Shown: positions 1 through 58,158, counted from the first letter of the stretch. The stretch is 58,158 nt of DNA from an uncultured Gemmatimonadaceae bacterium (GCA_964416095.1 CAYQCY010000006.1:1-58158), one strand, 5' to 3'. Program-made: numbers and translations. The notes: a model not told the origin generated them from the letters alone.

Positions 1-4
1 GTTG

Positions 5-94
5 GAGCACTGCGAGTTGGAGCACCGCGAGGGGGAGCACGGCGAGTTGGAGCACCGCGAGGGGGAACACGGCGAGGGGGAGCACTGCGAGGGG
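5..94. repeat. 15-bp tandem repeat, 6 copies (GA[G/A]CACNGCGAG[T/G][T/G]G), probably truncated by window start
   Basis: Units gagcactgcgagttg / gagcaccgcgagggg / gagcacggcgagttg / gagcaccgcgagggg / gaacacggcgagggg / gagcactgcgagggg read directly. Confidence 0.9.
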
Positions 95-183
95 GGTGGA
101 GCCGGGGCTTTCTGGGCCTGCCCTTGCCCCTGCTTCTGTCCCCTCTACCTTTTGGCGACGATGTCCCGCACCCCTGACGCAGC

Positions 184-1101
184 ATGACGGACACCGCGCC
201 CGGAGCCGATTCGACGAGAGCGGGCTACGTAGCCCTGGTCGGGTGTCCGAACGTGGGGAAGTCCACGCTCATGAACCGGTTCGCGGGCGAGAAGCTGAGC
301 ATCGTGACGGAGCGGGAGCAGACGACGCGGGAGCGGGTGACGGGGATCGTGACGACGGGGACGACTCAGTTGGTGTTCGTGGACACGCCGGGTCTGCTGG
401 ACCCGCGATACCTGCTGCAGCGTTCGATGCTGGGCGAAGCGCTGCGGGCGGTGGAGGACGCGGACGTCGTGCTGTTGATCCTGGACGCGACGCGGCCCGA
501 GGAGACCCGTCCGGCTGGAGAGGCTCTGGCGCGTTTGTCGGACAGGCGGGACTCGTTGGTGGTGGCGGTGAACAAGGTGGATGCGGCGCCGGCCGGGGCG
601 GTGGATGCGCTGGAGCGGTGGACGCAGGAGACGTTCGGGCTGGATGCGTGCCCGCTGTCGGCGGAGCGCGGGGAGGGGGTGGCGGAGCTGCGCGTGGAGC
701 TGGAGGAGCGGCTGCCGGCGTCGCCGTTCTTCTACCCGCCGGACGAGATCGCGGTGCAGCCGCTGCGCTTCTTCGTGGCGGAGCTGATCCGGGAGACGAT
801 CTTCGAGGAGTACGAGCAGGAGGTGCCGTATTCGACGGTGGTCCGGGTAGAGGAGTATCGGGAGGCGGAGCGGCCGATCTACATCCGGGCAACGGTGTAC
901 GTGGAGCGGAACAGCCAGAAGGGCATCATCATCGGGAAGGGCGGGGAAGCGATCAAGGAGCTCGGCCGCGGGGCCCGGGCGAAGGTGGAGGCGTTCGTGG
1001 GCGAGCGGGTGTACCTGGACCTGTGGGTGAAGGTACTGCCGGGGTGGCGGAAGAAAGCAGCGACGCTGCGGCGTCTGGGATATTCGGTCCCGGACGGTTA
1101 G
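184..1101 (+). CDS. era: GTPase Era
   Basis: [11 protein letters not shown]-loop, QTTR, DTPG, NKVD motifs; C-terminal KH domain ([11 protein letters not shown]). Confidence 0.97.
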
Positions 1102-1160
1102 ACTTCGGATGGCGCGGGCCATCCGGGTGTATTCCCGAACCGATCACCGAGAGGTACGGC

Positions 1161-1331
1161 ATGCTGGACGAGAAGCTGCTGGAGATCCTGGTCTGCCCGA
1201 AGTGCAAGGGCGAGCTGGAGTATCGTGAAGAGGACGGGGAGCTGGTGTGCCATGCCTGCCGGCTGGCCTACGAGGTCCGGGACGACATCCCCATCATGCT
1301 CATCGACGAGGCCAGGCCGACGGACGGGTGA
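1161..1331 (+). CDS. Trm112/YcaR family zinc-binding protein (56 aa)
   Basis: [19 protein letters not shown]...[15 protein letters not shown] signature; GAGG upstream; forms the tail of track ORF 96..1331. Confidence 0.9.
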
Positions 1332-1345
1332 GCGGGCGGTTGTCG

Positions 1346-7380: not shown

Positions 7381-7387
7381 GGAGCGG

Positions 7388-10897: not shown

Positions 10898-11401
10898 ATG
10901 CGTTGCGACCATTGCGGTGAGAACGAGGCGGTGATCCATCTCACGCAGATCGTGAACAACGAGATGAGCACGTTCCACCTCTGCGAGGCCTGCGCCGCGG
11001 CCCAGGGCCTCGAGCCCGATGCCGGGTCCGTGAACGCCCCGCTGACCGACTTCCTGGCGCAGCTCGGCAAAGAGGGCACGACCTCGGTGCCGGCCCAGCC
11101 AGAGCGGTGCTCGTACTGCGGGCTCGTGCTCGACGACTTCAAGAAGACGGGCCGCCTGGGCTGCCCCCACTGCTACGTCACGTTCGAGGTCCACCTGCGC
11201 GGCCTGCTCCGGCGGCTGCACGGCAGCACGCAGCACCTCGGCAAGGTCTACCTGCCGCCGGACCCGACAGAAGCCGACCGGCAGCGTCGGCTGTCGGGTC
11301 TGCGCCGGAAGCTGGACCGGGCCGTGGAAGGCGAGGACTTCGAGCGGGCGGCGGAGCTACGCGACCAGATCCAGGTGCTCGAAGGGGCCGAGGATGCTTG
11401 A
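10898..11401 (+). CDS. mcsA: Protein-arginine kinase activator McsA
   Basis: Four CxxC motifs; GRLGCPHCY; C-terminal UVR motif [13 protein letters not shown]. Confidence 0.92.
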   Translation: MRCDHCGENEAVIHLTQIVNNEMSTFHLCEACAAAQGLEPDAGSVNAPLTDFLAQLGKEGTTSVPAQPERCSYCGLVLDDFKKTGRLGCPHCYVTFEVHLRGLLRRLHGSTQHLGKVYLPPDPTEADRQRRLSGLRRKLDRAVEGEDFERAAELRDQIQVLEGAEDA

Positions 11402-46094: not shown

Positions 46095-46124
46095 AGCGGG
46101 CTCGCCCGCGGCCGCAGAGCCCCC

Positions 46125-46164
46125 GAAGGGCCGGCGGCGCCCGATCCGGCGCCGCCGGCCCTTC
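46125..46164. terminator. 17-bp perfect GC-rich hairpin downstream of the barrel gene
   Basis: GAAGGGCCGGCGGCGCC-CGATCC-GGCGCCGCCGGCCCTTC; no U-tract. Confidence 0.55.
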
Positions 46165-46428
46165 CCGCGTGTAGGGAAGTCCCTTGAGCTCCGTCCCTTG
46201 TAGGGGATTCCCCCATACCCGGTTCGGCCTTTGCCCGTACCGCGATTCCGCGTTCCCCTGACAGACGCCGGCACGGATGCGGGTATACTTGGGACAGGCT
46301 GACCCGGGGCGGCGCGGGCGAGGCCGACGCACGGCGGCGACGGCCGGGTGGACGGGACAGGATGACCCGGCCGAAGAGGGGGAAGGGAACGGGACGGGGA
46401 TGTCGGCGTATCCATGGGCGGCACCCCG

Positions 46429-46457
46429 TTGAAGCGAAGGGGTAGTCGGGGTACTAT
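46429..46457 (+). promoter_or_regulatory. sigma70-type promoter for the ccm operon
   Basis: TTGAAG-17 bp-TACTAT. Confidence 0.55.
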
Positions 46458-46509
46458 TGGACACCGTTTTTCGGGACCCCGGCGCGTGACTGAGCCAAGG
46501 AACGGTCTG

Positions 46510-47232: not shown

Positions 47233-47923
47233 GGTGGCGTCGTTCGGGACGGAGGTGTATCGCGCCACGGCGGTGGCGTGGAAGGACCTGACCACGGAGC
47301 GACGGACGAAGGCCAACTTCAATGCGGTCGTGTTCCTGGCCGCGCTGATGCTGATCCTCTTCGGCTTCGCGCTGGGTCCGGATGCGGAGGCGCTGCGGTC
47401 GGCCGCGGCGGGCGTGCTCTGGCTCACGGTGCTGTTCAGCGGGGTCCAGGCGTTCCACCGCTCGTACGAGATCGAGCTGGAGAGCGGGGCGCTGGAGGCG
47501 CTCCTCCTCTACCCGGGCTCGCGCAAGTCCATCTTCCTGGGCAAGCTGCTGGCCAACCTGGTCTTCATCCTGCTCGTGGAGGCCGTGGTGGTGCCGGTTT
47601 CCGCCGTGCTGTACGACCTGCCGCTGGCGCAGATCTTCCCCGGCATCCTGCTCGTGCTGTTTCTGGGGACGCTGGGGTTCGTGACGCTGGGCACCTTCTA
47701 CGGCGCCATGGCGAGCCGGCTCCGGGCCCGGGACGTACTGCTGCCGCTGCTGCTGTTCCCCATGCTGATCCCGGTGCTGGTAGGCTCGGTGGAAGCGACG
47801 GCGGCCCTCATGGGTCGGGACGTCATGGGCGAGGCGGCTTCGTGGATCGAGCTTCTGGTGGCGTTCGATGTCATCTTCCTGGTCGCGGCGTTGTTGACCT
47901 TCGAATCCATCGTCGAGGAGTGA
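47225..47923 (+). CDS. ccmB: Heme exporter permease CcmB
   Basis: KDLTTERR; multi-TM; LLPLLLFPMLIPV. Confidence 0.92.
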   Translation: MGEVASFGTEVYRATAVAWKDLTTERRTKANFNAVVFLAALMLILFGFALGPDAEALRSAAAGVLWLTVLFSGVQAFHRSYEIELESGALEALLLYPGSRKSIFLGKLLANLVFILLVEAVVVPVSAVLYDLPLAQIFPGILLVLFLGTLGFVTLGTFYGAMASRLRARDVLLPLLLFPMLIPVLVGSVEATAALMGRDVMGEAASWIELLVAFDVIFLVAALLTFESIVEE

Positions 47924-47924
47924 G

Positions 47925-48668
47925 ATGAGGCAGGAACCCGATACGGCGTACGGGGAGGCCCGGGTCGTCCCGAGACGGCCGGGCTGGCTCTGGCCGGTCA
48001 CGGTCCTGGGAGTGGTGGCGCTGGTGGCGACCCAGGCCCACGGCTTCACGACGTCGCCGGACCGGGACATGGGGCACCTGGTCAAGATCCTGTTCGTGCA
48101 CGTGCCCACGGCCATCATGGCCTTCATGGCGGTGCTGATCATGTTCGTGGCCAGCATCCTGTACCTGTGGAAGCGGCGGGAGGTCCATGATCTGGTCGGT
48201 GCGGCGGCCGCGGAGGTGGGTGCGATCCTGACGGCGCTGACGCTGGTGCAGGGCTCGATCTGGGGTCGGCCGACCTGGGGCATCTGGTGGACGTGGGACG
48301 CACGGCTGACGTCCACGGCGGTGCTGCTGGTGATCCTGGTGGGCTACCTGGCGCTGCGCTCGTTCACGGACGAGCCGGGACGGCGGGCCCGGTGGAGCGC
48401 CGCGGTGGCGATTCTGGGCGCCATCAACACGGTCATCGTGTACTGGTCCGTGGAGTGGTGGCGGACGCTGCACCAGCCGCATTCGAGCCCCATGACCGTG
48501 GACCCGGAATACTCGCTGGGGCTCAGGCTGAACATGCTGTCGTTCCTGGTCGTGCTCGTGGCGGCGGTGGCGTGGCGCTACCGGGCGAGCCGTCTCGAGC
48601 TGGCGGTGGACGAGCTCCGTGAGGAATCGGCTCTGAGTGAAGGAGAGGGCTATGGCCCAGGTGTCTGA
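47925..48668 (+). CDS. ccmC: Cytochrome c biogenesis protein CcmC
   Basis: HVP; WWD motif GSIWGRPTWGIWWTWDARLTS; WWRTLHQ. Confidence 0.95.
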   Translation: MRQEPDTAYGEARVVPRRPGWLWPVTVLGVVALVATQAHGFTTSPDRDMGHLVKILFVHVPTAIMAFMAVLIMFVASILYLWKRREVHDLVGAAAAEVGAILTALTLVQGSIWGRPTWGIWWTWDARLTSTAVLLVILVGYLALRSFTDEPGRRARWSAAVAILGAINTVIVYWSVEWWRTLHQPHSSPMTVDPEYSLGLRLNMLSFLVVLVAAVAWRYRASRLELAVDELREESALSEGEGYGPGV

Positions 48669-48804
48669 ATGGGACTTCATCGTGGCCGCGTACGCAGTCA
48701 CGTGGGTGGTGGTGATCGGGTACGCGATCGTGCTGGCGGGGAAAGTCCGCCGGGCGAAGCGTGAGTTCGAGGACGAGCTGGGGGACCGGGAGGTGGAGTC
48801 GTGA
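48652..48804 (+). CDS. ccmD: CcmD small membrane protein (50 aa; not in ORF track)
   Basis: MAQVSEWDFIVAAYAVTWVVVIGYAIVLAGKVRRAKRE...; AAY motif, TM helix and basic tail; lies between ccmC and ccmE. Confidence 0.8.
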   Translation: MAQVSEWDFIVAAYAVTWVVVIGYAIVLAGKVRRAKREFEDELGDREVES

Positions 48805-49244
48805 AGCGACGCGGACTGTTGATCGCCGGCGTGGTGGTGATCCTCTCGGGGTTCGGCTACCTCATGTACGGCGGGATCGGCGAGAACCTGGTGTACTTCC
48901 TGACGCCCAGCGAGCTCCTGGCGAAGGGGACCGACGCCGTGGATGCTCCCGTACGCCTGGGCGGGATGGTGAAGCCGGGCTCGGTGGAGTGGAACGCGGA
49001 GGAGCTGGACCTGCGGTTCGTGCTGACGGACGGGGCCGAGCAGGTGCCGGTGCACGCCACGGGCGCGCCGCCCACCATGTTCCGTGACACCATCGGCGTC
49101 GTGGTGGAGGGCCGGCTGACGGGCAGCGGCGTCTTCGAGTCCACGAACCTGATGGTGAAGCACTCGAACGAGTACCGGGCGCCGGCGGAGGGCGAGAAGC
49201 CGGAGCAGATGTACCGGACCCTCATGGAGGGGGGTTCGGAGTGA
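48801..49244 (+). CDS. ccmE: Heme chaperone CcmE
   Basis: YFLTPSE; VRLGGMV; KHSNEY (HxxxY heme-binding motif). Confidence 0.93.
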   Translation: MKRRGLLIAGVVVILSGFGYLMYGGIGENLVYFLTPSELLAKGTDAVDAPVRLGGMVKPGSVEWNAEELDLRFVLTDGAEQVPVHATGAPPTMFRDTIGVVVEGRLTGSGVFESTNLMVKHSNEYRAPAEGEKPEQMYRTLMEGGSE

Positions 49245-51247
49245 CACGCGTTCTCGGTCTCGGCTCCATCGGTCTCGCACTGGCGCTGGCGGTCTACGGC
49301 ATCGTCGTGACGTACTGGGGTGCGCGCAGGACGCGCCGCGACCTGGTCCGGAGCGGCCAGGCGGCCGTGTACGCCATCTTCGGGCTACTGACGGTGGCGA
49401 ACCTGGCCATGATCTACGCCCTCCTGACCCACGACTTCAGCATCTCGTACGTGGCGCAGGTCGGCAGCCGGGCGACACCACCGTTCTACACCGTCATCTC
49501 CCTGTGGTCGTCGCTGGACGGCTCCATCCTGTTCTGGGGCTGGGTGCTGGCGGGGTACACGGCGGTCGTCGTCTGGCTGCACCGGAACGAGCGGGGAAAC
49601 CTGGTGCCGGCGGCTACGGGCACCATGCTGCTCGTGGGCATCTTCTTCTACATGCTCCTGCTGGGCCCGGCCAACCCGTTCGGCGCGGTCTGGCCGGTCC
49701 CGTCGGACGGCCCCGGTCCGAACCCGCTCCTGCAGAACCACTGGCTCATGGGGGTGCACCCGCCGCTGCTCTACCTGGGCTACGTGGGGATGACGGTGCC
49801 CTTCGGATTCGCCATCGGGGCCTTGCTCACCGGTACCTTCGACGCGCGCTGGCTCCAGATCACGCGCCGCTGGACGCTGGCGAGCTGGGGCTTCCTGTCC
49901 GTGGCCATCGTGGCCGGCATGTGGTGGTCCTACGAGGTCCTGGGCTGGGGCGGATACTGGGCATGGGACCCGGTGGAGAACGCGTCGTTCATGCCGTGGC
50001 TCACCGCCACGGCGTTCCTCCACTCGGCCATGGTGGAAGAGCGCCGCGGCATGCTCAAGACGTGGAACCTGAGCCTCATCATCTCGACCTTCCTGCTGAC
50101 GATCCTGGGCACGTTCCTGACCCGCAGCGGCGTCCTGAACTCGGTCCACGCCTTCACGGAAGGCACCATCGGCTTCTGGTTCCTGGGCTTCATCACCATC
50201 GCGCTCCTGGCGGCCCTGGCGCTCCTGACCGGGCGTGCCGGCGAGCTGAAGAGCGAAGGCCGGCTGCAGTCGCCGACCTCCCGGGAAACGGCGTTCCTGG
50301 TCAACAACCTTCTCTTCACGGCCTTCACCTTCACCGTGCTGCTGGGGACCCTGTTCCCGCTGGTCGCGGAGGCCGCGCGGGGCGTCAAGGTCAGCGTCGG
50401 CGAGCCCTTCTTCAATCGCATGACCGTCCCCATCATGGCGGCCCTCCTGTTCCTCATCGGCGTGGGACCGGTCCTGCCGTGGGGCAAGCCGGACCGTGAC
50501 CGGCTCGTGCGGCGACTCCTCCATCCGACCATCGGCCTGGTGGTCGCCGTCCTCTTGGGTCTGCTGGCGGGGACGCGGAACGTCTGGGCGATTCTGGCCT
50601 TCGGCTTCGCCGGCTTCTCCCTGGTGGCGAACCTGAGCGAGTATGCGGTGGGCGCCCGGGCCCGCATGAAGAAAGGCGAGAACCCCGTCCAGGCGCTGCT
50701 CCGCCTCGTGGACGCGAACCGGCGCCGCTACGGGGGCTACCTGGCCCACATCGGCGTCGTGGCCATGGCGGTGGGGATCGCCGCGTCCTCCACCTTCCGC
50801 TACGAGCACGAGGCCACGCTGGCGCCCGGCGAGTCCATGCGGGTGGAGGAGTACACGGTCCGCCTGGCCGAGATCTGGGGACGGCAGGAGCCGCAGCGCT
50901 TCGCCGTGGGCGCGACGCTGGAGGTCCTGAACGACGGCGCCATCATCGACCGCCTGGAGCCGCGCCTCAACTTCTATCCGACATCGGACCAGCCCATCAC
51001 GACGCCGGCCGTGCGCAGCAGCGCGGCGGAAGACCTGTACCTCACGCTCATGGCGTTCGAGCGGGACGGCTCTTCGGCGACGATCCGGGGTATCGTAGAG
51101 CCGCTGGTGGTCTGGATCTGGATCGGAGGCGCCATCATCGGATTGGGCGCGTTGCTCTCCCTCACCGGCCGCAAGCGGAAGCGCATCCCGAGCCCGCCGA
51201 GACGTCGGCCGGAGCGGGAGACCGCCGCGACCAGCGCAGGATCCTGA
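49241..51247 (+). CDS. ccmF: Cytochrome c heme lyase CcmF
   Basis: GPNPLLQ; HPPLLYLGY; LGWGGYWAWDPVEN; SVHAF. Confidence 0.96.
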   Translation: MTRVLGLGSIGLALALAVYGIVVTYWGARRTRRDLVRSGQAAVYAIFGLLTVANLAMIYALLTHDFSISYVAQVGSRATPPFYTVISLWSSLDGSILFWGWVLAGYTAVVVWLHRNERGNLVPAATGTMLLVGIFFYMLLLGPANPFGAVWPVPSDGPGPNPLLQNHWLMGVHPPLLYLGYVGMTVPFGFAIGALLTGTFDARWLQITRRWTLASWGFLSVAIVAGMWWSYEVLGWGGYWAWDPVENASFMPWLTATAFLHSAMVEERRGMLKTWNLSLIISTFLLTILGTFLTRSGVLNSVHAFTEGTIGFWFLGFITIALLAALALLTGRAGELKSEGRLQSPTSRETAFLVNNLLFTAFTFTVLLGTLFPLVAEAARGVKVSVGEPFFNRMTVPIMAALLFLIGVGPVLPWGKPDRDRLVRRLLHPTIGLVVAVLLGLLAGTRNVWAILAFGFAGFSLVANLSEYAVGARARMKKGENPVQALLRLVDANRRRYGGYLAHIGVVAMAVGIAASSTFRYEHEATLAPGESMRVEEYTVRLAEIWGRQEPQRFAVGATLEVLNDGAIIDRLEPRLNFYPTSDQPITTPAVRSSAAEDLYLTLMAFERDGSSATIRGIVEPLVVWIWIGGAIIGLGALLSLTGRKRKRIPSPPRRRPERETAATSAGS

Positions 51248-51260
51248 GGAGCGAGGACGT

Positions 51261-51857
51261 ATGAACTGGCGACGTTCGCTGATCGGTGTAGGCATCGGGC
51301 TGCCACTGGTAGCGCTGCTCGCCTACGGCATGACGGTGGACCCGAAGGACATTCCTTCGCCGCTTCCGGGCCGGCCGGCCCCGGATTTCGCGCTCCAGGT
51401 GCTGGACGGCGTGGGTGGCATCCCCCAGGGGACGGAGGACTCGGTGCGCCTGACGCAGCACAAGGGCGACGTCGTCGTGGTGAACTTCTGGGCCTCCTGG
51501 TGCCTGTCGTGCCGGTCCGAGCACGCCGTGCTGTCCATGGGCGCCAGGCAGTACGAGGACAGGGGCGTCCATTTCTACGGCATCCTCTACAACGACACCC
51601 CGGAGAACGGCCGTGAGTGGATCCGGCGCATGGGCGGACAGAGCTACCCGGCCCTCCTGGATCCGGGCGCGCGGACGGCCGTGGACTTCGGCCTGTACGG
51701 CGTGCCGGAGACCTTCTTCATCGGTCGGGACGGCAGGGTCGCCCACAAGCAGGTCGGGCCGGTGACGCCGGAGCTGCTGCGGGAGCAGCTCGCGACGCTG
51801 CTGGCCCAGGCGCCGCCGGCCGACGCCGACGTAGACGCCACGAGCGGGGGGGCATGA
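51261..51857 (+). CDS. ccmG: Thiol:disulfide interchange protein CcmG/DsbE (TlpA-like)
   Basis: N-terminal anchor; NFWASWCLSC; YGVPETF. Confidence 0.88.
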   Translation: MNWRRSLIGVGIGLPLVALLAYGMTVDPKDIPSPLPGRPAPDFALQVLDGVGGIPQGTEDSVRLTQHKGDVVVVNFWASWCLSCRSEHAVLSMGARQYEDRGVHFYGILYNDTPENGREWIRRMGGQSYPALLDPGARTAVDFGLYGVPETFFIGRDGRVAHKQVGPVTPELLREQLATLLAQAPPADADVDATSGGA

Positions 51858-52324
51858 TGTCGACTCGTACCCTCTGGGCAATCGTCATGACCCTCCTGCT
51901 GGCGGCATCCGCGTCGGGCCAGCAGGTGGAGGGCCTGTCCCCGGTGGAGGTCCAGACCCAGCAGATCGCATCGGAGCTCCGCTGCCCGGTGTGCCAGGGG
52001 ACCTCCATCAACGACTCGCCGTCCGAGCTCGCGCAGCAGATGAAGGACATCATCCGCGAGCGCCTTGAGGCGGGCCAGACGCCCGAGGAGGTGAAGGCCT
52101 ACTTCGTGGACAAGTACGGCGAATGGGTCCTGCTCCGGCCCGAGGCCCGGGGCTTCAACCTCGTCGTCTACGTCATGCCCGTCCTGGCGCTGCTGGGCGG
52201 CGCTCTCATCGTCTACTCGGTCGTCCGGAAGTGGACCGTGGCCGACGCTCTACCCATCGACGACGACGACGGCGAAGCGGGCGAGCGGGACGTCGTTCTG
52301 AACGCGGGGGCGGCATCGGACTAG
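51854..52324 (+). CDS. ccmH: Cytochrome c biogenesis protein CcmH
   Basis: LRCPVCQG; YFVDKYGEWVL; C-terminal TM helix. Confidence 0.93.
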   Translation: MMSTRTLWAIVMTLLLAASASGQQVEGLSPVEVQTQQIASELRCPVCQGTSINDSPSELAQQMKDIIRERLEAGQTPEEVKAYFVDKYGEWVLLRPEARGFNLVVYVMPVLALLGGALIVYSVVRKWTVADALPIDDDDGEAGERDVVLNAGAASD

Positions 52325-52391
52325 CGCCGGACCGGCTCCGGAACCGCGCCCGTGGCCCTGGAGACCGCTTCGCGAGCGACGAGAGGTAACG

Positions 52392-53225
52392 ATGTATCCC
52401 ACCCTGTTCCGCATCGGCGATTTCGAGGTCACGACCTTCGGCCTCATGATGTTCCTGGCCTTCATCATCGGGGCGTGGGTCCTCAGCAAACAGCTCGAGC
52501 GCCGGGACCTGGACCCGGACCTGGCCTGGGACGTCATCCTCTGGGCCGCCGTAGGCGGGATCCTGGGCGCAAAGCTGTACTACGTCGGCCTGCACTGGGA
52601 ACACCTGGTCGCCGACCCCCTGGGCACCCTCACCAGCAGGGCCGGCCTCGTCTGGTACGGTGGGTTCATCGGCGGCGTCATCGCGTACTTCATCTTCATC
52701 AAGCGCCGCGGTCTGCCCATGGCGAAGATGTTCGACGCCACCGCCCCGGCCCTCGCCATCGCGTACGCCACCGGCCGCGTTGGATGCTTCCTCGTCGGCG
52801 ACGACTACGGGCTCCCCACCGACGCCTGGTACGGCATCGCCTTCCCCGACGGCGCTCCGCCCAGCACCGCCGGCTATTTCCGGTCCCTCGGCGTGGAGAT
52901 CGCCGCCCACATCCCCGACAGCGCCGTCCTGGCCGTCCACCCGACCCAGCTCTACGAGATTTTCCTGGGCCTCGTCATGTTCGCCATCCTCTGGCAGCTC
53001 TCCAAGCGCGTCCTGGCGCCGGGACGCCTCTTCGCCGTCTTCATGGCGCTCTACGGTGTGGAACGCTTCTTCGTCGAGTTCGTCCGCGCCAAGGGCGACC
53101 GCTACGTCTTCGGCCTGTCTACCTCCCAGATCGCCAGCATCATCCTCCTGGGTCTCGCCGCTTTCATCTGGTACCGTACCCGGGACTGGATCGGTGAGGA
53201 CGGCGGGGAAACCGCAACCGCGTGA
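52392..53225 (+). CDS. lgt: Prolipoprotein diacylglyceryl transferase
   Basis: GLVWYGG; GRVGCF; HPTQLYE; RFFVEFVR. Confidence 0.92.
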   Translation: MYPTLFRIGDFEVTTFGLMMFLAFIIGAWVLSKQLERRDLDPDLAWDVILWAAVGGILGAKLYYVGLHWEHLVADPLGTLTSRAGLVWYGGFIGGVIAYFIFIKRRGLPMAKMFDATAPALAIAYATGRVGCFLVGDDYGLPTDAWYGIAFPDGAPPSTAGYFRSLGVEIAAHIPDSAVLAVHPTQLYEIFLGLVMFAILWQLSKRVLAPGRLFAVFMALYGVERFFVEFVRAKGDRYVFGLSTSQIASIILLGLAAFIWYRTRDWIGEDGGETATA

Positions 53226-54121
53226 CCCACAATAGCTTAGCCATCGCCACCCGAAGCGTTGCCGCGGGTGCGATCCTGCTGGCGGCCGGGGCGACGGGCC
53301 AGGTCCCCGAGCCGGAGACGGGACCGCCCCGGGACACGACGCCGGCCGCCATGGGGGAGCCGGCGGAACCGCTCGAGCTGGCGGGCCGGCTCGTGGCGGG
53401 CGGGGGTGCGGTATCGGCGGGATTCGGGACGTTGCAGGAGCAACGGGTGCAGGTTTCGCGGCTGGACGCCCAGGGGGAGGCGCGGGACAGCAGGGTGTTC
53501 CGCCGCGTGTTGACGGCTTCCGGTGGATACGGGGTTGCGGGGTCGGTGACCGCGTGGCTGTCGGAGCGGTGGGGGGTCCGTCTGGAAGGCGCTGTGGGCG
53601 CGGTGGAGGTTGAGGTGGGGTACCCCCTGGCGGGCTGGGACTACATGCAGGAAGCCGACACGGTGGAATCCCGGTCCGGCGGGACGTTCTCGTTCCGGAC
53701 GGGTACGGCGTCCCTCCTCTTCGGGCTACCCGTCTCGCACCCTTTCTACACCCCGTACGCTCTGCTGGGAGCCGGCGTGACGGATTACGGAACCGATGAA
53801 ACGCTGGCCCCGGGCCTCGCCACGCTGGAAGACGGATCCGGTCTTCTGCTCACGGCGTCGTACGGCCTCGGCGCGTACGTGCCGGTGACGAAGGACCTGC
53901 TCCTGCAACTCGAGGCGGTGCGGCGCACGTCACCGAGCCCGGTGGACGGGGTGGGAACGGGCACGGTCCTGGAGGGCGACAGCGTGCGGGTGGAGTTCGT
54001 GGAGCCGGCGAGCGACGAGAGTGACCCGACCCTGAACACGGTGGCCGGATGGCACGTGAGCGTGGGCCTCTCCTACCGGCTGCCGTTCCGGCGCGGTCAG
54101 CGGCGGGACGAGGAAGGGTAG
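53222..54121 (+). CDS. Hypothetical outer-membrane beta-barrel-like protein
   Basis: Signal-like N terminus; PYALLGAG and VSVGLSYR strand motifs typical of small barrels. Confidence 0.6.
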   Translation: MTHNSLAIATRSVAAGAILLAAGATGQVPEPETGPPRDTTPAAMGEPAEPLELAGRLVAGGGAVSAGFGTLQEQRVQVSRLDAQGEARDSRVFRRVLTASGGYGVAGSVTAWLSERWGVRLEGAVGAVEVEVGYPLAGWDYMQEADTVESRSGGTFSFRTGTASLLFGLPVSHPFYTPYALLGAGVTDYGTDETLAPGLATLEDGSGLLLTASYGLGAYVPVTKDLLLQLEAVRRTSPSPVDGVGTGTVLEGDSVRVEFVEPASDESDPTLNTVAGWHVSVGLSYRLPFRRGQRRDEEG

Positions 54122-55887
54122 GGCTGGACGCTCAGGAGCCGGGACGAGGTGCGTCGGGTCCCCAGGACCAGGTCCTGGACCGTCATCTCGAGGCGATAGA
54201 GGCCGGGCTCCACGTTTCCGACACCCAGGTCCAGCGCCAGGATAACGGGCTCGCCGGCCACCCCGTCGCCGGTCCAGGTGACGCGAGGTATCGTGGGGCG
54301 GCCGCCCAGGCCCAGGCGTCGCCCGATCCAGCGGGCAACGCGGGTGGCGAGCCCGGGCCGGTCTTCCCGGTGAAGCGCCACGTCGATGCTGTAGCGGGTG
54401 CGTCCGCCCTCCCCGGGCGCGAGCCAGTGGGCCTCGGCATAAAGTCCCACCGCCTCGCCCCGGTGCACCTCGGGGCTCGACAGCGGGCTCAGGCGAAGCT
54501 CCGACCGGTCGCGGGGCAGGGGACGGTCCCGGAACGACCGGGCCAGCACGATGTCGGACAGAGCCAGGACCCCGGGGGAGTAAGGCTCGGCGTCCACGGC
54601 GTACCGGGCCCGCGCCGCCATGCCGGAGACGGAATCCCGGACCTCCAGACTGTAAACGTAGCGCCCCGGAGCCACCGTCACCTCGTCGGTCAAGCGGAGG
54701 AGCCCCCCGTTGGTGCGGTGCACGGCACGGTCCTCATGGACCGTCGTGGCCGCCGTGTCCAGCAGGAACACGCCCGCCCGGGCCGTGCGAACGGACCCGC
54801 GCAGCGTGTCCAGCGCCATCTCCGCCTCCAGCCTCAGCACCACGCTGTCGCCGGCAGGGAACCGCGTCACCTGGTGCGGCAGCTCCAGCATGCGCAGCAC
54901 CGTCCCCGGGGCGTAGCTGGACCGGGCCCGCACCTCTTCCAGCGGCCTCCGGGCACCGGGCTCGGGCAGCTCCGGGAACCCTTCCACCGAGAGGTCCGCC
55001 CGGGCATACGCCAACGATTCCGGGTGGTACCGCTCCAGGATCCGCGTCTCGCCGAGGCCGAGTCCCGCGATGCGCTCCCGGGTCACAGGGACCCCGTAAC
55101 GGATCGTCAGCTCGTCCAGGTCGCTGCCCCAGGACACGGCGCCCACCACCCGCGGCGCCTTCGCCAGCAACCTGGCCCAGACGTGGCGCGCCACGTGGGC
55201 GTTCCACCGCTCGTTGCCCGGCGTCACGAAGAGGGGATCGGCCAGGCGCCAGAACCGCTCCCGGTACCGGGCCCGGGCCGCCGGCTCCATCTCGTCCACC
55301 CGGTCCCGCTCGGCCCCCGTCAGCAACGGCCCCAGCGACAGGATCCGGTCCCGCTCCTCTGCCGGCATCCGAGCCAGCGCATCGCCGAAGGACCGGGACG
55401 CCTCCGCATCCTCTCCGTCCGCATGGAGGGCGAACCCCACCAGCAGAGGGCCCCATACGCTGTCCGCCGAGGCCCACGCGAACGCCCGGGCCGCCGGCAC
55501 CGCCTCCCCGGACCGCCCGTCCTCCACCAGGTACCGCACCAGCGGACCCGCCGCCTCCACATCCCCCGGCACCAGCGCGAAGAGCCGTCGGAATACGTCG
55601 ATGGCCTCCTTTCGCGCCTCCACGATCCGGATGTGCTCCGCCGGCGGTCGCCACGGCGTCGGCTCCGGATCCTCCTCGCTGAACCGGAGACAGAACCGCC
55701 CCACGATCTCGTCGCAATCGCTCCCCCAGCCGCCGCTCAGGGTCCGGGGCGCCAGCGTGCGCAGCAGACGCTCGTACCGGTACTCCTTCTGACGGGCCAG
55801 ACGTCGCAGCGCGTCCAGCGAATCGGCCTGCGCGGGCACGGGGGCCACGACCTGGAGGCCCAGGGTCAGGAGCACGAGCAGATGCAT
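54097..55887 (-). CDS. GWxTD-domain-like secreted protein
   Basis: Signal peptide; RERFWRLADP...NE...H.AR and WGSD....IRYG.P (divergent GWxTD motif); Ig-like C-terminal folds (PGRYVYSLEVRD, PGLYRLEMTVQD). Confidence 0.7.
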   Translation of the reverse strand: MHLLVLLTLGLQVVAPVPAQADSLDALRRLARQKEYRYERLLRTLAPRTLSGGWGSDCDEIVGRFCLRFSEEDPEPTPWRPPAEHIRIVEARKEAIDVFRRLFALVPGDVEAAGPLVRYLVEDGRSGEAVPAARAFAWASADSVWGPLLVGFALHADGEDAEASRSFGDALARMPAEERDRILSLGPLLTGAERDRVDEMEPAARARYRERFWRLADPLFVTPGNERWNAHVARHVWARLLAKAPRVVGAVSWGSDLDELTIRYGVPVTRERIAGLGLGETRILERYHPESLAYARADLSVEGFPELPEPGARRPLEEVRARSSYAPGTVLRMLELPHQVTRFPAGDSVVLRLEAEMALDTLRGSVRTARAGVFLLDTAATTVHEDRAVHRTNGGLLRLTDEVTVAPGRYVYSLEVRDSVSGMAARARYAVDAEPYSPGVLALSDIVLARSFRDRPLPRDRSELRLSPLSSPEVHRGEAVGLYAEAHWLAPGEGGRTRYSIDVALHREDRPGLATRVARWIGRRLGLGGRPTIPRVTWTGDGVAGEPVILALDLGVGNVEPGLYRLEMTVQDLVLGTRRTSSRLLSVQPYPSSSRR

Positions 55888-56032
55888 CACACGTCAGGAA
55901 TCGAGCTTCGTCCCGAAGAGAAGGGAAGGCCATCGCACGGCCCGGATCGCCCTTTTGCCATCCTACTCATAACGCTTCGTCACGTTCCCGGTCCACACCC
56001 GGCCGCCGGCGCCCAGGAGGGCCGCCACGCTG

Positions 56033-56061
56033 TTGACGGCCTCTCGGACCGCCGCTAACTT
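56033..56061 (+). promoter_or_regulatory. sigma70-type promoter
   Basis: TTGACG-17 bp-TAACTT, the same hexamers as the larC promoter. Confidence 0.6.
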
Positions 56062-56155
56062 CCCGGCCGCATCCGAACCCCGACCCGAAACCGCCCGTGG
56101 GCACGCAGGTGCGCCGGCGGTCCGCGTTCGTTTTCCCCGACGTCGACACAGCGCC

Positions 56156-56860
56156 ATGGCCAAGGACAACCCGCAGAAGCCACGCGGGCGAAAGAAGGAA
56201 GAACCCGAGGACGCGTTTCTCGCAACCGTCCTCGGGATCGTCGAGTGGGGCAAACGCCATGCCCGCGCGCTCTCCATCGCCGGCGCCGCCCTCGTCATCG
56301 CGGTCGCGGCCGTCCTGTATTATGTAAATTACCAGCAAACCCTCGAGGCGCGGGCCGCCACACGGCTCACCGAGCTGCGTCAGGTGGGGCAGAGCGGGAA
56401 CCGGCCGCTGGCGATCCGGGACCTGGAGAGCTTCATCTCCCGGTTCTCCGGAACGGACGCCGTGGACGAGGCGCGGCTGATCCTGGCGTCGCTGCAACTC
56501 CAGGAGGGGCAGGCCGAGGCGGCGGCGAGCACGATCCGGAGCCTGGCGGAGCCTGGGAGGCCCATCGGTACGAACGCCGCGTTCCTGCTGGCCGCGGCCC
56601 GGGAGCAGCAAGGCCAGGGGGACCATGCCGTGAGCACGTACCTGGAGATCGCCGAAGACGCCCGCTTCGCCTTCGAGCGAAGGCGGGCGCTGGAGGCCGC
56701 GGCGCGGCTGCGGCTGCAGCAGGGAAGCCCGGAAGCGGCGGCGGACCTGCTCCAGCGCCTGGTGAACGACCTGCCGGACGACGACCCGGAACGGGGCTAC
56801 TACGAGATGCTCCTGGCCGAGGCCCGTGCCGCGACGGAGGCCTCGCCCCAGAGCGGCTGA
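56156..56860 (+). CDS. YfgM-like membrane-anchored TPR protein
   Basis: Charged N terminus, single TM helix, then helical TPR-like repeats. Confidence 0.75.
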   Translation: MAKDNPQKPRGRKKEEPEDAFLATVLGIVEWGKRHARALSIAGAALVIAVAAVLYYVNYQQTLEARAATRLTELRQVGQSGNRPLAIRDLESFISRFSGTDAVDEARLILASLQLQEGQAEAAASTIRSLAEPGRPIGTNAAFLLAAAREQQGQGDHAVSTYLEIAEDARFAFERRRALEAAARLRLQQGSPEAAADLLQRLVNDLPDDDPERGYYEMLLAEARAATEASPQSG

Positions 56861-56908
56861 CGACGAGCCGCCCCGCTCCTTGCCGGTCCGACCCGCGGGA
56901 GCGGAGTC

Positions 56909-57799
56909 TCAGGCGAGGCCCAACTCCTTCTTCATCTCATCGGTGAGGGACTGGCGCAGCGGGTCGCGGCCCGACCACGGGTCGGACCGGAGCGACCCCA
57001 GGCGCCTCAACGTGTTGGACACGTCGTAGCCAGCCGGGTCCAGCCCGGACGTTACCTCGTCCCAGCGCAGCGGCACGGCCACCGGCGCACCGTGACGGGC
57101 CCGGGTGGAGTAGGGCGCCACGGCCGTGGCGTTTACCGCGTTTCGCAGGTAGTCCACGTAGATGCGGCCTTCCCGCTCCTCCTTGCTGCTCTTCACGACG
57201 TACCGTTCCGGCTCCTCCTCGGCCATTACCTCGGCCACGGCACGGGCAAACGAACGCACCGCGTCCCAACCGTCCCGCCGTTGCAGGGGCACGTGGATGT
57301 GCAGCCCTTTTCCACCCGTCGTCTTCGCGAAGGACCGGAGACCCAGCGACTTCAGTCGCTCCCGGACGTGCCGTGCCGCCTCCGCCAGCGCGCCGGGCTC
57401 CACTCCGGGACCCGGGTCCAGGTCGAAAAGCATGCGGTCCGGCCTCTCCAGATCGTCCCTCCGGGCGTTCCAGACGTGAATCTCCAGCACGCCCATCTGG
57501 ACCAAAGAGATCAACCCCTCGACGTCATCCACCACCAGGTACTCCTCGTCCTCGCCCGCCACCGACACCCGACGCACCGCCTCCGGAAACCCTTCCATCG
57601 GGTGCTTCTGGTAGAAACACTCCGAGTCCTGACCCTCCGGGCACCGTACCAGCGTCAGCGGCCGACCCTCCAGGTGGGGAACGATCCACTCCGCCACGTC
57701 CCGGTAGTACGACGCCAGGTCGGTCTTCGTCAGTCCCTGGTCCCCGTACAGCACCCGGTCCGGGTGCGTCAACTCCACGCCCGCGATCCGCAAGGCCAT
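56909..57799 (-). CDS. Stand-alone LigD polymerase (primase-polymerase) domain protein of NHEJ
   Basis: LTHPDRVLY; RPLTLVRCPEG; FYQKH; FDLDP; KTTGGKGLH; YVDYLRN; APYSTRAR; VAVPLRWDE. Confidence 0.9.
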   Translation of the reverse strand: MALRIAGVELTHPDRVLYGDQGLTKTDLASYYRDVAEWIVPHLEGRPLTLVRCPEGQDSECFYQKHPMEGFPEAVRRVSVAGEDEEYLVVDDVEGLISLVQMGVLEIHVWNARRDDLERPDRMLFDLDPGPGVEPGALAEAARHVRERLKSLGLRSFAKTTGGKGLHIHVPLQRRDGWDAVRSFARAVAEVMAEEEPERYVVKSSKEEREGRIYVDYLRNAVNATAVAPYSTRARHGAPVAVPLRWDEVTSGLDPAGYDVSNTLRRLGSLRSDPWSGRDPLRQSLTDEMKKELGLA

Positions 57800-57899
57800 G
57801 ACCCTCCGTTCCTCTGGTCGCCCCTCCAGCCTCTCCACGCGCTTCTCCGAACGTTGCAAAGGCCGAGCCAGGGCCATGATGACCACCCCGGCCGCATCG

Positions 57900-57927
57900 T
57901 GTGCGTATAATATACATTATGTAAACT
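57900..57927 (+). other. dif: dif-like XerC/XerD recombination site
   Basis: TGTGCGTATAA-TATACA-TTATGTAAACT: 11-6-11 layout; left arm resembles the E. coli XerC arm (GGTGCGCATAA), right arm matches the B. subtilis dif arm (TTATGTAAACT) as recalled; AT-rich island in 70% GC DNA. Confidence 0.85.
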
Positions 57928-57999
57928 CACGCCGACCACCGATCACCACGCTCTCCCTTTTGAGGACCCGTGGCGGCTGTTCAGCGTTCCGGGGATCAC

Positions 58000-58158
58000 A
58001 CGCGAAGCCGCGAAGGGTGCGAAGCCGCGAAGGGCTTTCTTCGGGGGTCATTCGACATTCGAGGTGGTGCGATCTCCCGGGATGCAGTAGTTCGGCGGGA
58101 GCGCGTTCCGGGGGTCAAAACGTTCTTCGCGGCTTGATGGTTCTTCGCGGCTTCGCGT
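58000..58158. repeat. REP/MITE-like element with 16-bp perfect terminal inverted repeats and internal partial duplicates
   Basis: ACGCGAAGCCGCGAAG (58000-58015) and CTTCGCGGCTTCGCGT (58143-58158); inner copies GCGAAGCCGCGAAG (58019-58032) and CTTCGCGGCTT (58125-58135). Confidence 0.75.

Follow-up and report, generated by a model that had tools for sequence, protein, structure and literature searches.

Silent codon positions in an uncultured Gemmatimonadota bacterium flip from C-rich to G-rich at about 100 gaps between transcription units. The pattern is real and apparently undescribed so far, and it tracks gene direction rather than hidden replication origins. As its cause we tentatively favor selection on transcript composition, probably through Rho. 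We analyzed a stretch of 58,158 nt (the window) together with the ~3.75 Mb genome to which it belongs, a metagenome bin of 219 scaffolds.

Skew switches in the window

Fifty-four genes were called in the window with a simple in-house caller, and Pfam confirmed the strand of 47. The initial annotation had proposed four C-to-G switches from hand counts of C and G. All ten counts were exact on recount, and sliding skew at four-fold degenerate sites, run on the window and the genome, found C-to-G switches at all four points. Four-fold skew on the + strand rose from −0.30 to +0.73 at 27.6 kb, −0.31 to +0.63 at 34.1 kb, −0.71 to +0.69 at 46.2 kb, and −0.50 to +0.36 at 53.2 kb, with weaker steps at ~40.0, 43.7, and 56.0 kb. 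Raw GC skew in 600-nt windows moved likewise, from −0.109 to +0.225 (27.0–28.2 kb), −0.110 to +0.261 (33.3–35.1 kb), −0.121 to +0.286 (45.6–47.1 kb), and −0.143 to +0.184 (52.5–54.0 kb), so that its magnitude was 0.2–0.29 in the G-rich flanks (G arms) and 0.11–0.14 in the C-rich flanks (C arms). Codon positions 1 and 2 hardly moved across these switches. Both window ends had the same polarity, as previously noted, with four-fold skew of +0.84 at the start and −0.54 at the end. The features are as follows, with four-fold skew given for each arm.

1–105, no strand: tandem array with a 15-nt period (GCGAG-N10 type), 6.1 copies, at the contig start in the centre gap upstream of era
184–1500, + strand: G arm of era and the following genes, +0.53 to +0.84 (era by Pfam MMR_HSR1 and KH_2)
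25800–27619, + strand: C arm of the nadB 3′ part, rlmH, and the bshC 5′ third, −0.12 to −0.30 (Pfam)
27620–27700, + strand: AT-rich rare-codon run inside bshC, centre of the intragenic switch, GC 0.43 in 60 nt
27701–28900, + strand: G arm of the bshC 3′ two thirds, +0.56 to +0.73
32700–34099, + strand: C arm of gltX, −0.17 to −0.31 (Pfam)
34100–34181, no strand: centre gap between gltX and larC; TTGACG, 17 nt, TAACTT looks promoter-like by eye and is absent from the consensus-scan list
34182–35400, + strand: G arm of larC, +0.50 to +0.63 (Pfam)
43657–44135, no strand: weak centre gap, skew −0.31 to +0.16
45000–46094, + strand: C arm, a gene without a Pfam family, −0.14 to −0.71
46095–46485, no strand: centre gap upstream of ccmA; by eye, the stop codon is followed at once by a GC-rich hairpin that lacks a T tract
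46486–48900, + strand: G arm of ccmA, ccmB, ccmC, and ccmE, +0.27 to +0.69 (Pfam)
52200–53221, + strand: C arm of lgt, −0.26 to −0.50 (Pfam)
53222–54100, + strand: G arm, a gene with a signal-peptide-like N-terminus (by eye), +0.25 to +0.36
54097–55890, − strand: gene with a coding strand increasingly G-rich toward its 5′ end (+ strand −0.12 to −0.54)
55891–56155, no strand: centre gap between divergent genes (gene calls, skew)
56156–56860, + strand: weak G arm, +0.08 to +0.35
56909–57886, − strand: LigD primase-polymerase domain gene, coding strand G-rich toward the 5′ end (+ strand −0.35 to −0.54; Pfam)
57887–58158, no strand: centre gap at the window end, containing an AT-rich patch (57902, GC 0.45) and a direct repeat of 17 nt (58002–58034); the scaffold continues as a run of Ns

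The gap at 46095–46485 was alone among the gaps in having, by eye, a C-rich left and a G-rich right part. No gap exists at the 53.2 kb centre, as the gene starting at 53222 overlaps the lgt stop codon. In a relative (G004), the coding strand at the orthologous era end is G-rich as well, and this locus likewise lies at a contig end.

Genome-wide recurrence

Jump size (D) was obtained across the whole genome by comparing four-fold-site skew over 150 sites per side. C-to-G jumps numbered 184, 105, and 61 at D of at least 0.6, 0.8, and 1.0, and G-to-C jumps 52, 7, and 1. The switches are thus recurrent and polar as first proposed, C to G being the only abrupt direction, and they are strand-symmetric. 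Skew in the arms decayed to ~0.2 within 1.4–1.6 kb of the centre. Across all coding strands, the four-fold bases were G 338,366, C 311,367, A 22,757, and T 27,023, with a GC skew of only +0.04 and T exceeding A.

On contigs >20 kb, 70 upward and 4 downward jumps had D of at least 0.8. Exchanging third bases between codons of the same family across each contig, with proteins kept (10 shuffles), left none in either direction, and the pattern thus survived the codon-shuffled controls that had been set as its refutation. Shuffling within genes (n = 10, same contigs and threshold) retained 48.4 upward and 1.6 downward jumps. Since most jumps outlast this treatment, a jump is mostly a difference between neighboring genes to which gradients within genes are added.

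Link to transcription units

The initial annotation described the switches as independent of gene direction and beyond explanation by transcription. The former stands only insofar as flanking genes are found in all four orientations; the latter we could not uphold, as centres sit at gaps and the gradient follows gene runs. Of the 105 centres with D of at least 0.8, 92 adjoined a non-coding gap that was 60 nt or longer (median 205 nt), and the median distance from centre to gene start was 68 nt vs 347 nt for random positions. Among 517 unselected co-directional gene runs, the 5′ 700 nt of the coding strand were G-richer than the 3′ 700 nt in 402, with a skew difference above +0.5 in 84 and below −0.5 in 3. 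The origin-like symmetry arises because a gradient polar to transcription units is viewed on one strand. The proposed linkage of the switches to sites was borne out: the right arm exceeded 0.3 with a probability of 0.61 if the left arm was below −0.4 and 0.09 otherwise.

Gaps of at least 150 nt had D > 0.6 in 10% of (+,+), 16% of (−,−), 18% of divergent, and 11% of convergent cases, and D < −0.6 in at most 1%. Mean D was +0.17 to +0.21 at these gaps and +0.53 to +0.66 at the AT-richest patches. Ribosomal-protein, rpoBC, and groESL operons had the skew. The 3′ end of the spc-type ribosomal-protein operon drops to −0.56 and the next operon begins directly at +0.77, while skew declines from +0.42 to −0.46 along rplK to rpoC before rpsL begins at +0.6. 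The strongest 20 centres adjoin TetR, two MarR, and PadR regulators, histidine kinases, a sigma factor, and transporters.

Nucleotide signature and confinement to open reading frames

T goes with G and A with C: AT skew went from +0.3 to −0.3 across centres at four-fold sites that had not been used in picking the centres. Two-fold sites and Leu first positions shifted in the same direction, codon position 1 shifted weakly, and E/D, K/N, M/I, and V/I usage shifted too, which points to a force on nucleotides in open reading frames and not to tRNA choice. At two-fold sites, T/C odds were 1.78× and A/G odds 0.82× background in G arms, and A/G odds were 1.72× and T/C odds 0.80× background in C arms. 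The G/C odds at four-fold sites shifted ~4.4-fold in G arms and ~2.7-fold in C arms. Log-odds add up roughly as they would under nucleotide preference, while pure transition asymmetry would give a ratio near 1. Part of the four-fold T/A effect is due to GGT and CGT alone. At third positions, GC skew was +0.34 in G arms and −0.36 in C arms, and AT skew −0.32 and +0.16; subtracting C-arm from G-arm GC skew gave 0.71 for position 3, 0.08 for position 1, and 0.04 for position 2. Val, Cys, and Gly were up in G arms and Pro, Thr, His, and Gln in C arms, with Trp contrary.

The excess of G over C and T over A occupied synonymous sites in the 5′ parts of units, reversed in their 3′ parts, and was absent from the non-coding DNA of arms and gap flanks. 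Gap flanks had skews of −0.01 (42 gaps) and +0.05, and non-coding DNA within the arms −0.04 and +0.07 vs −0.45 and +0.47 at four-fold sites over the same spans. A process radiating from a site in the DNA (a nick, resection, or a local replication start), as the initial annotation envisaged, predicts that skew peaks where the DNA beside centres is least constrained. That DNA is unskewed, which argues against such a process.

AT-rich centres and the bshC switch

A flip within one gene is real in bshC and rare elsewhere, with ~3 or 4 of the 105 centres truly intragenic. The bshC flip lies at a conserved AT-rich rare-codon run. The A/T-rich third-base run occupies the same alignment columns in this genome (G000) and in G004, G012, and G007 and is absent from G002 and G019. 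The bshC of G004, a separately assembled member of another genus, has the same switch polarity. That centres are AT-richer held strongly at 27.62 kb (GC 0.43 over 60 nt) and 57.90 kb (0.45), moderately at 34.15 kb (0.52), and weakly at the remainder (0.55–0.63 vs a window median of 0.70). The A+T share of four-fold sites rose from 0.065 to 0.119 at centres. Intergenic 80-nt patches with GC < 0.5 had D > 0.6 in 43% of cases and D < −0.6 in none, compared with 2.9% and 0.7% of random positions, and AT-rich patches foretold jumps in a graded manner. Motif discovery at centres found no 7–10 nt k-mer common to more than a few, promoter-like words aside. Genome-wide, 64 loci carry the 15-nt array type, roughly half of which lie where contigs end; by BLAST, 15-nt arrays were present at 7 of the 105 centres.

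Distribution among relatives

The asymmetry was present in five sampled genomes of one family (weakly in one), recurring in G004, G009, and G012, and absent in three of the sister family. Conservation at orthologous junctions, which had been suggested as a check, was weak, with Spearman coefficients of 0.17–0.36 in four relatives and D of at least 0.3 in a relative at 4 of 9 strong G000 junctions. Two Rho_RNA_bind matches over the cut-off were found in G000 and likewise in G004, G012, G019, and G021; the sister family carries the same two Rho genes without the asymmetry. Uracil-DNA glycosylase (UDG) and RNase HI were found among trait-bearing and trait-lacking genomes alike.

Alternative explanations

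Strand-asymmetric mutation tied to transcription is possible, though we consider it unlikely. On each side of promoter regions that fire bidirectionally, the non-template strand, exposed within transcription bubbles or within R-loops formed by untranslated RNA, would lose cytosine: deamination would convert C to T, and removal of the uracil followed by bypass would convert C to G. Some adenine would be lost too, leaving the exposed strand G+T-rich for ~1 kb. Such chemistry agrees with the joint G and T excess at sites not used for picking centres, the concordant two-fold, Leu, position 1, and amino acid shifts, the raised A+T share at centres, the graded effect of AT-rich patches, and the coupling of left and right arms. 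Ribosomal-protein operons are also G-rich across 9 kb, as it would have them, and divergent start sites would have no skew in the gap DNA between them if it is untranscribed. However, C-rich 3′ ends, which occur in highly expressed operons and in both genes of convergent pairs, would require antisense to exceed sense transcription, and this is implausible at the 3′ ends of ribosomal-protein and rpoC operons. On its way to the upstream gene, the antisense RNA would also have to traverse the gap flank that is unskewed (−0.01). Consensus promoter matches on the antisense strand were not enriched, with none in 24 high-D (+,+) gaps. Transitions are shifted only ~1.75-fold (C to T) and 1.2-fold (A to G) vs 3- to 4-fold for G/C odds, so a special excess of C-to-G transversions must be assumed. 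The strongest centres adjoin regulators and transporters, not the most expressed genes, and UDG and RNase HI do not separate genomes with and without the trait.

Recurrent breaks, nicks, or local synthesis at the gaps, as proposed in the initial annotation and suggested for GRINS, would have the outward-made strand gain G and T through a biased repair polymerase or biased gene-conversion correction; we regard this as improbable. The polarity is exactly that of outward synthesis on both strands, and the correlated GC and TA skews, third-position maximum, kb scale, and sign change on one strand agree with the published GRINS description, as do amino acid shifts for seven of the eight residues named there (Trp is contrary). 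Contigs break at centres (27% of left ends exceed +0.3 vs 7.8% of interior windows), repeat arrays lie at centres, and the strongest centres adjoin accessory-type genes. Yet synthesis or resection from a gap must cross the non-coding DNA by centres and in arms, which is unskewed, and the arms are not repeats, a second copy (at least 80% identity over at least 300 nt) being found for 1 of 201. The G-rich part reaches 3–9 kb in long operons and scales with the unit rather than having a fixed tract length. Centres share no sequence motif, and flank polarity is the same whichever way the 15-nt arrays are oriented, with a mean D of 0.41 that is of the order of other long or AT-rich gaps.

Although the genome is a 219-scaffold bin with genes from a simple caller and the source-run contigs abut near 46.1 kb (within the gap, at 46112–46141), an artefact of assembly, binning, or gene calling is very hard to credit, since the skew is already in raw base counts without any gene calls, reading frames are open with strands confirmed by Pfam, the 53.2 kb centre is bridged by independent contigs (47634–54300 in the source run, 52.85–53.3 kb in two other runs) that speak against chimeras, and the bshC switch and the asymmetry recur in other genera and genomes.

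Comparison with described systems

Like the initial annotation, we found no named system for such switches. Replication origins and mammalian N-shaped skew domains have an abrupt upward jump, a gradual return, and a G+T-rich strand 3′ of the jump. The jump shape is the same here, with each strand G+T-rich 3′ of it, but there are 105–184 jumps with arms of 1–3 kb, placed at gene starts and ends and absent from non-coding DNA. A chromosomal or plasmid replication origin was rejected (105 jumps with D of at least 0.8 in ~3.75 Mb, no whole-replichore skew, no repeats shared by more than a few centres among 7–10 nt k-mers, promoter-like words aside), and replichore skew does not explain the switches, as first stated. 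Francino and Ochman reportedly described a transcription-associated asymmetry in bacteria, an excess of G+T on the coding strand. Unit starts and ribosomal-protein operons here have that G and T excess, but with a four-fold amplitude of up to 0.8, sign reversal at unit ends, and no clear scaling with expected expression.

The 5′/3′ gene skew of fungi is also a gene-polar gradient with a sign change at four-fold sites and in amino acids that is tied to the phase of transcription. The fungal coding strand is C-biased 5′ and G-biased 3′, the reverse of most gene runs here, and its skew reportedly reaches promoters and 3′ UTRs, unlike the unskewed non-coding DNA of this genome. GRINS, as described, combine intense correlated GC and TA skews, a third-position maximum, both signs within ~1 kb of one strand, and shifted amino acid usage. 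These skew, third-position, and residue traits occur here, Trp usage excepted. GRINS are, however, duplicated regions >500 bp with >80% identity tied to gene conversion, while the switches here lie at gaps among single-copy housekeeping and accessory genes, with the single duplicated arm counted in a draft assembly that can collapse repeats.

The purine bias of Rho avoidance (Nat Microbiol 2026, PMC13323073) resembles our pattern in that a coding-strand nucleotide bias shapes codon usage, is explained by Rho loading, and leaves antisense RNA Rho-sensitive by complementarity. That bias sets purines against pyrimidines, uniformly along genes and genome-wide; here G+T is set against C+A, the sign reverses from unit start to unit end, and the effect is strong at only a subset of boundaries. 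Rho is encoded here, and the coding strand is not A+G-rich throughout; in the arms, G goes with T rather than A.

Proposed selection on transcript composition

We infer selection rather than mutation, and Rho as the probable reader. Under this reading, the jumps would be boundaries of a sawtooth in the changeable sites of open reading frames, with RNA leaving an inter-unit gap being C-poor and G-rich over its first 1–3 kb and RNA heading into a gap being G-poor and C-rich over its last 1–1.5 kb. Such a sawtooth puts a C-rich to G-rich change on one DNA strand at each boundary, whatever the gene orientation. All gap orientations would then follow one transcript rule, and convergent pairs with two C-rich 3′ ends would need no promoter. 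Insulation and weak translation are a plausible fit to the genes at the strongest 20 centres. Hairpin-plus-T-tract terminators were not enriched in the window (20 found vs 15.6 expected). In Bacilli, both codon usage and the nucleotide bias of the coding strand have been shown to be driven by Rho avoidance (PMC13323073).

Several observations argue against Rho. A C-rich zone of 1–2.5 kb inside last genes is poor terminator design: coupled translation denies it to Rho, and with translation uncoupled, Rho would cut the last gene short. Nor were the 100 nt immediately 3′ of C-arm stop codons C-rich. Rho prefers pyrimidines, and the pairing of A with C and T with G in the arms runs against that preference. 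The sister family has both Rho genes without the asymmetry, the bshC switch leaves the 5′ part of a single gene C-rich, and conservation at orthologous junctions is weak.

If transcript composition is nevertheless under selection through Rho, which loads on naked RNA that is C-rich and G-poor, unit starts would be kept Rho-resistant, along the whole length in long or weakly translated units. The antisense of unit starts would be kept Rho-sensitive, as would unit ends, and control regions in this bacterium would thus be shielded on both sides from incoming transcription.

Genomic setting of the window

The source bin comprised 3.75 Mb in 219 scaffolds at 70% G+C. Our own gene caller, based on codon log-odds trained on long ORFs, predicted 3212 genes genome-wide (90% coding) and 54 in the window, where all genes from 184 to 54121 were on the + strand. 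Such an extended stretch of co-oriented genes matches the region of high strand bias in Gemmatimonadota chromosomes described in the available part of PMC11237797, which treats skew at chromosome scale only. Pfam assigned 47/54 window genes, an ordinary housekeeping set: in the first half era, rnr, prfB-type, lysS, lolC/D-type, mcsB, clpC, bamA, ompH, lpxD/C/A/B/K, and nadB, and in the rest rlmH, bshC, murJ, uvrC, gltX, larC, der, plsY, gpsA, surE, pcm, ccmA-H, lgt, and a LigD primase-polymerase domain. Genes for a mcsA-like UVR-motif protein, a mcsB-type ATP:guanido phosphotransferase, and clpC (10898-15024) directly preceded bamA, ompH, and the lpx genes, so that an outer-membrane lineage has a protein-arginine-kinase quality-control module (mcsA/mcsB/clpC type) of the kind known from Bacillus. 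The window ClpC was 77-81% identical to ClpC of Gemmatimonadaceae, Gemmatimonadales, and Longimicrobium bins. Window DNA was matched in microbial-mat metagenome runs, with no RNA run listed among the matches, and among the contigs of four metagenome runs 467 places differed from the window, most of the 40 listed coming from diverged relatives. A Rfam scan of the window returned one match only, the tRNA-Arg(CCT) at 44731-44807. Many contigs from other organisms in the four runs aligned to this tRNA alone, creating loose ends and a peak in depth at 44.72-44.78 kb.

Skew jumps at four-fold sites

Sliding GC skew at four-fold sites confirmed the four + strand switches from C-rich to G-rich that the initial annotation had picked out by eye, and its ten hand counts of C and G were all exact on recount. 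Smaller steps occurred near 40.0, 43.7, and 56.0 kb, and the skew was +0.84 at the start of the window and -0.54 at its end. Codon positions 1 and 2 were nearly flat across the jumps.

Steps in four-fold-site GC skew on the + strand of the window
27.6 kb (inside bshC): -0.30 to +0.73
34.1 kb: -0.31 to +0.63
46.2 kb: -0.71 to +0.69
53.2 kb: -0.50 to +0.36

We called jumps genome-wide by comparing 150 four-fold sites per side, with D the step in skew between the two sides. C-to-G (up) jumps numbered 184, 105, and 61 at D ≥0.6, ≥0.8, and ≥1.0, and G-to-C (down) jumps 52, 7, and 1. On contigs >20 kb, 70 up and 4 down jumps were observed at D ≥0.8; ten shuffles in which codons of one family exchanged third bases inside each contig gave 0 up and 0 down, so the clustering survived full control for amino-acid sequence. 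Ten within-gene shuffles of the same contigs gave 48.4 up and 1.6 down at that threshold. The jumps are therefore mostly differences between neighboring genes, with within-gene gradients added on top. Assembly chimeras were ruled out by independent contigs crossing the 53.2-kb centre and by recurrence of the bshC switch in other genera, and we give an artefact of any kind almost no weight.

A sawtooth along transcription units

The pattern is a sawtooth that is polar along transcription units. We compared the first and last 700 nt of 517 co-directional gene runs (gaps <100 nt, length ≥1.5 kb) with no selection on skew, and the coding strand was G-richer in the first part in 402 (mean difference +0.24). 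The 5'-minus-3' difference was >+0.5 in 84 runs and <-0.5 in 3. In long runs the G-rich part exceeded 3 kb and the C-rich part was the last 1-1.5 kb. Coding-strand skew in the ribosomal-protein cluster was +0.2 to +0.48 for 9 kb and -0.56 over the last genes, then +0.77 at the next operon; it dropped from +0.42 to -0.46 between rplK and rpoC, after which rpsL began at about +0.6, and from +0.64 to about 0 across groES-groEL. Because the coding strand is G-rich at the 5' end and C-rich at the 3' end, tail-to-head, head-to-head, and tail-to-tail boundaries all read C to G on the + strand. This accounts for abrupt jumps being confined to the origin-like direction. The strand symmetry seen in the initial annotation was real, but the independence from gene direction claimed with it was not. 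A general within-gene ramp was rejected as an explanation: at short-gap junctions gene 5' ends averaged +0.04 and 3' ends +0.09.

Anatomy of a centre

Over the 105 centres (C-to-G switch points with D ≥0.8), mean four-fold GC skew went from -0.58 in the left (C) arm to +0.57 in the right (G) arm and was down to about 0.2 by 1.4-1.6 kb on either side. AT skew, which was not used in picking centres, went from about +0.3 to -0.3, T following G, and the A+T share of four-fold sites rose at centres from 0.065 to 0.119. The median distance to the nearest gene start was 68 nt (347 nt for random positions), and 92/105 centres had non-coding DNA of ≥60 nt (median 205 nt) next to them; about three or four were truly intragenic. 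Flanking genes were divergent at 28 centres, (-,-) at 25, (+,+) at 24, and convergent at nine, and the remaining 19 had non-coding DNA at one orientation test point. Among all gaps ≥150 nt, D exceeded 0.6 in 10-18% of each orientation class and was below -0.6 in at most 1%. The two arms at a gap are coupled: of 71 gaps whose left arm was below -0.4, 61% had a right arm >+0.3, compared with 9% of the 199 whose left arm lay between -0.2 and 0.

AT-rich 80-nt patches predicted jumps in a graded manner, with D >0.6 at 43% of intergenic patches with GC <0.5, but such a patch was present at only 26% of centres. The sole further 60-nt patch with GC ≤0.48 in the window, at the mcsB/clpC junction (12299-12370), had a small upward four-fold step (+0.05 to +0.31). 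Motif discovery at the centres found no shared element, and only promoter-like words were enriched (CTTGACA in 9 vs 1.1 expected; TTGACGG in 17 vs 5.3 expected). A sigma-70 consensus match of at least 9/12 on either strand occurred in 24% of gaps with D ≥0.9 vs 7-8% of low-D gaps. These matches ran in the sense direction and so gave no sign of bidirectional consensus promoters. A consensus scan of the window thirds found 0, 1, and 0 promoter-like sites. Hairpin-plus-T terminators were not enriched in the window (20 vs 15.6 expected). Immediately past the stop codon of the gene whose end is at 46094, a 14-bp G+C-rich hairpin lacking a T tract (46095-46180) is a possible terminator or RNA-end protector of a form that the consensus scan does not count. 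tRNA genes were rejected as centres, with a mean D of +0.12 at the 16 loci with both flanks; the window tRNA-Arg is not a centre.

Repeats at gaps and contig ends

Tandem arrays of strictly 15-nt period, built on a GCGAG core, lay in intergenic DNA at window positions 1-105 and at 64 loci across the source genome (e.g., contigs C15:12170-12306 and C1:70383-70680). Their units include GCGAGTTGGAGCACT or GCGAGGAGGATGAAG, and they occur in either orientation, sometimes as inverted pairs about a central stretch. At roughly half of the 64 loci a contig end lay no more than about 100 nt away, which indicates that the arrays break the assembly. A second repeat type was present at the end of the window (57970-58158), with a 17-nt direct repeat at 58002-58034 (GCGAAGCCGCGAAGGGT) and inverted CTTCGCGGCTTCGCG-like copies at 58.12-58.16 kb. 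The gap that holds it resembles one on contig C77 of the same genome, and an N run comes next in the scaffold.

Nucleotide basis of the shift

The arms differed at two-fold sites and at the first position of Leu codons, as listed below. Codon position 1 shifted weakly in the same direction as position 3, and residue pairs differing by G/C or A/G (E/D, K/N, M/I, V/I) tracked the arm, with Ile at 3.0% in G arms vs 4.8% in C arms.

Base choice in G arms, C arms, and elsewhere
T/(C+T), two-fold sites: 0.148, 0.0725, 0.089
A/(A+G), two-fold sites: 0.0875, 0.1665, 0.104
TTG/(TTG+CTG), Leu first position: 0.128, 0.051, 0.056

The main effect is that C is avoided on the strand leaving a centre and G on the strand arriving. 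A tRNA-pool explanation was rejected: G- and T-ending codons rose jointly, as did C- and A-ending codons, cutting across the codon pairs that share a tRNA, and the Leu first position moved too. The shift acts on nucleotides and not on tRNA choice. Two-fold-site odds were about 1.75 and 1.2 (product about 2.2), and four-fold G/C odds shifted about 4.4-fold and 2.7-fold, the order expected under nucleotide preference. Transition asymmetry alone would keep G/C near 1 unless C-to-G transversions were specially frequent.

Non-coding DNA did not carry the skew, and this is the decisive negative result. A process radiating from a point in a gap should be strongest at the gap flanks, but in the 42 centre gaps ≥250 nt the skew was -0.01 in the 100 nt by the left gene and +0.05 in the 100 nt by the right gene, the right flank exceeding the left in 24/42. 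Within the arms, non-coding DNA summed to about 4,300 and 5,800 nt and had skews of -0.04 and +0.07 vs -0.45 and +0.47 at four-fold sites of the same spans, weak evidence because these spacers are short and partly constrained.

Conservation in relatives

Same-family genomes shared the excess of up jumps, weakly in G014, in 100-200 kb sampled per genome, and in the sister family the skewness of D was about 0. None of our conclusions draws on G015, G016, G018, or G020, which are marked unpublished.

Up/down jumps in relatives, with the threshold D and the skewness of D
G004, same family: 8/0, D 0.6, skewness 0.99
G009, same family: 6/2, D 0.6, skewness 1.40
G012, same family: 6/1, D 0.6, skewness 0.49
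G014, same family: 1/0, D 0.6, skewness 0.44
G019, sister family: 5/8, D 0.5, skewness about 0
G021, sister family: 3/4, D 0.5, skewness about 0
G025, sister family: 0/0, D 0.5, skewness about 0

Conservation of centres at orthologous junctions, a check suggested in the initial annotation, was weak. Among the four relatives of the same family, Spearman correlations with the source genome were 0.29, 0.18, 0.36, and 0.17; sister-family genomes gave 0.24, -0.40, and -0.30. Few strong junctions were syntenic with relatives. G004, the closest genome compared, belongs to another genus (BshC 58% identical) and carried the bshC-internal switch as well as the G-rich era end at a contig end. The bshC switch was strong in the source genome and G004, moderate in G012, weak in another genome, G007, and absent from G002 and G019. 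It is located on a run of about 20 successive rare A/T-ending codons (27620-27700; AGA, GAA, GCT, TTA, GAT, CGA, CTT, CCT, CCA, TTT); four-fold sites across the genome are 93% G+C. This codon run was at the same alignment columns in the source genome, G004, G012, and G007, four genera, despite differing amino acids; it was weak in G014 and absent from G002 and G019. An internal promoter is one possible role for it, and some other signal acting at the DNA or RNA level is another. A single-protein search of genome contigs for BshC relatives gave no match. The ClpC neighborhoods of 28 high-GC genomes contained one up and one down jump, with none in the eight Gemmatimonadota loci; this survey says little, since the orthologous region of the source genome also has no jump. 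Gene loss was rejected as a cause, as UDG, RNase HI, and Rho were present in all five genomes checked, with or without the trait. The source genome has two genes with a Rho RNA-binding domain (C26:11817-12038 and C13:23298-23513), as does each of the other four Gemmatimonadales genomes screened.

Possible causes

We rank Rho-type selection first, followed by transcription-linked cytosine loss, a site-anchored DNA process, and artefact, and leave the remaining probability to causes we have not thought of. Our leading reading, held tentatively, is that transcript composition may be under selection, most likely via Rho. Such selection would account for the C-rich ends of convergent pairs and highly expressed operons. 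It would also explain why the skew is confined to ORFs, why arms are coupled where units truly meet, and which gene types occur at the strongest centres (TetR, MarR, PadR, kinases, a sigma factor, and transporters). Rho-shaped composition has a precedent in Bacilli in the accessible text of PMC13323073. The weak points of the selection reading are that A, rather than U, accompanies C, that a kb-long Rho-sensitive stretch within the last genes is costly, that 3' flanks are not C-rich, and that the same Rho genes occur in the sister family.

A second reading, in which the non-template strand of divergent transcripts suffers transcription-linked cytosine loss, seems unlikely, though a serious contender: it explains the G+T signature and the tie to AT-rich patches, but requires more antisense than sense transcription at operon ends and predicts skew in the gap flank crossed by antisense RNA. 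More doubtful is a repair, recombination, or replication process anchored at sites, as proposed in the initial annotation and discussed for GRINS, a known class of duplicated, skewed regions. It has the right polarity and a signature like that in the available portion of PMC8256042, but the absence of skew from non-coding DNA contradicts it, and the arms are not repeats (a second copy for 1/201). Least probable among these processes, and a long shot, is that centres are true miniature origins of strand asymmetry, where one strand is repeatedly displaced or newly synthesized on each side, for example by R-loop-primed or break-induced synthesis beginning at easily melted gaps. The gaps would then lack skew because non-coding DNA turns over fast, perhaps through the 15-nt arrays and other repeats.

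Relation to known skews and implications

We class the pattern with transcription-linked strand composition. Origin switches and mammalian N-domains are alike in shape only. GRINS have the same signature, but their defining repeat criterion failed here; the Rho-avoidance bias of Bacilli coding strands has the same logic, but its purine axis and uniformity were not found. The fungal 5'/3' skew, as presented in the accessible part of PMC3315797, is mirrored here with opposite polarity. A full-text literature search, covering PMC8256042 and PMC11237797 apart from their supplements, found no operon-scale, sign-switching synonymous skew in bacteria.

If selection maintains the sawtooth, the silent sites of this lineage punctuate its transcription units, DNA alone would suffice to map operon starts and ends in uncultured Gemmatimonadota, and the recent idea of Rho-shaped coding-strand composition would extend from uniform to position-dependent bias. 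If mutation is the cause, the sawtooth points to roughly a hundred sites in each genome at which one strand is unusually exposed and would provide a link to the unexplained GRINS skews. Either way, analyses of codon usage, GC skew, and gene inversion are biased in these genomes.
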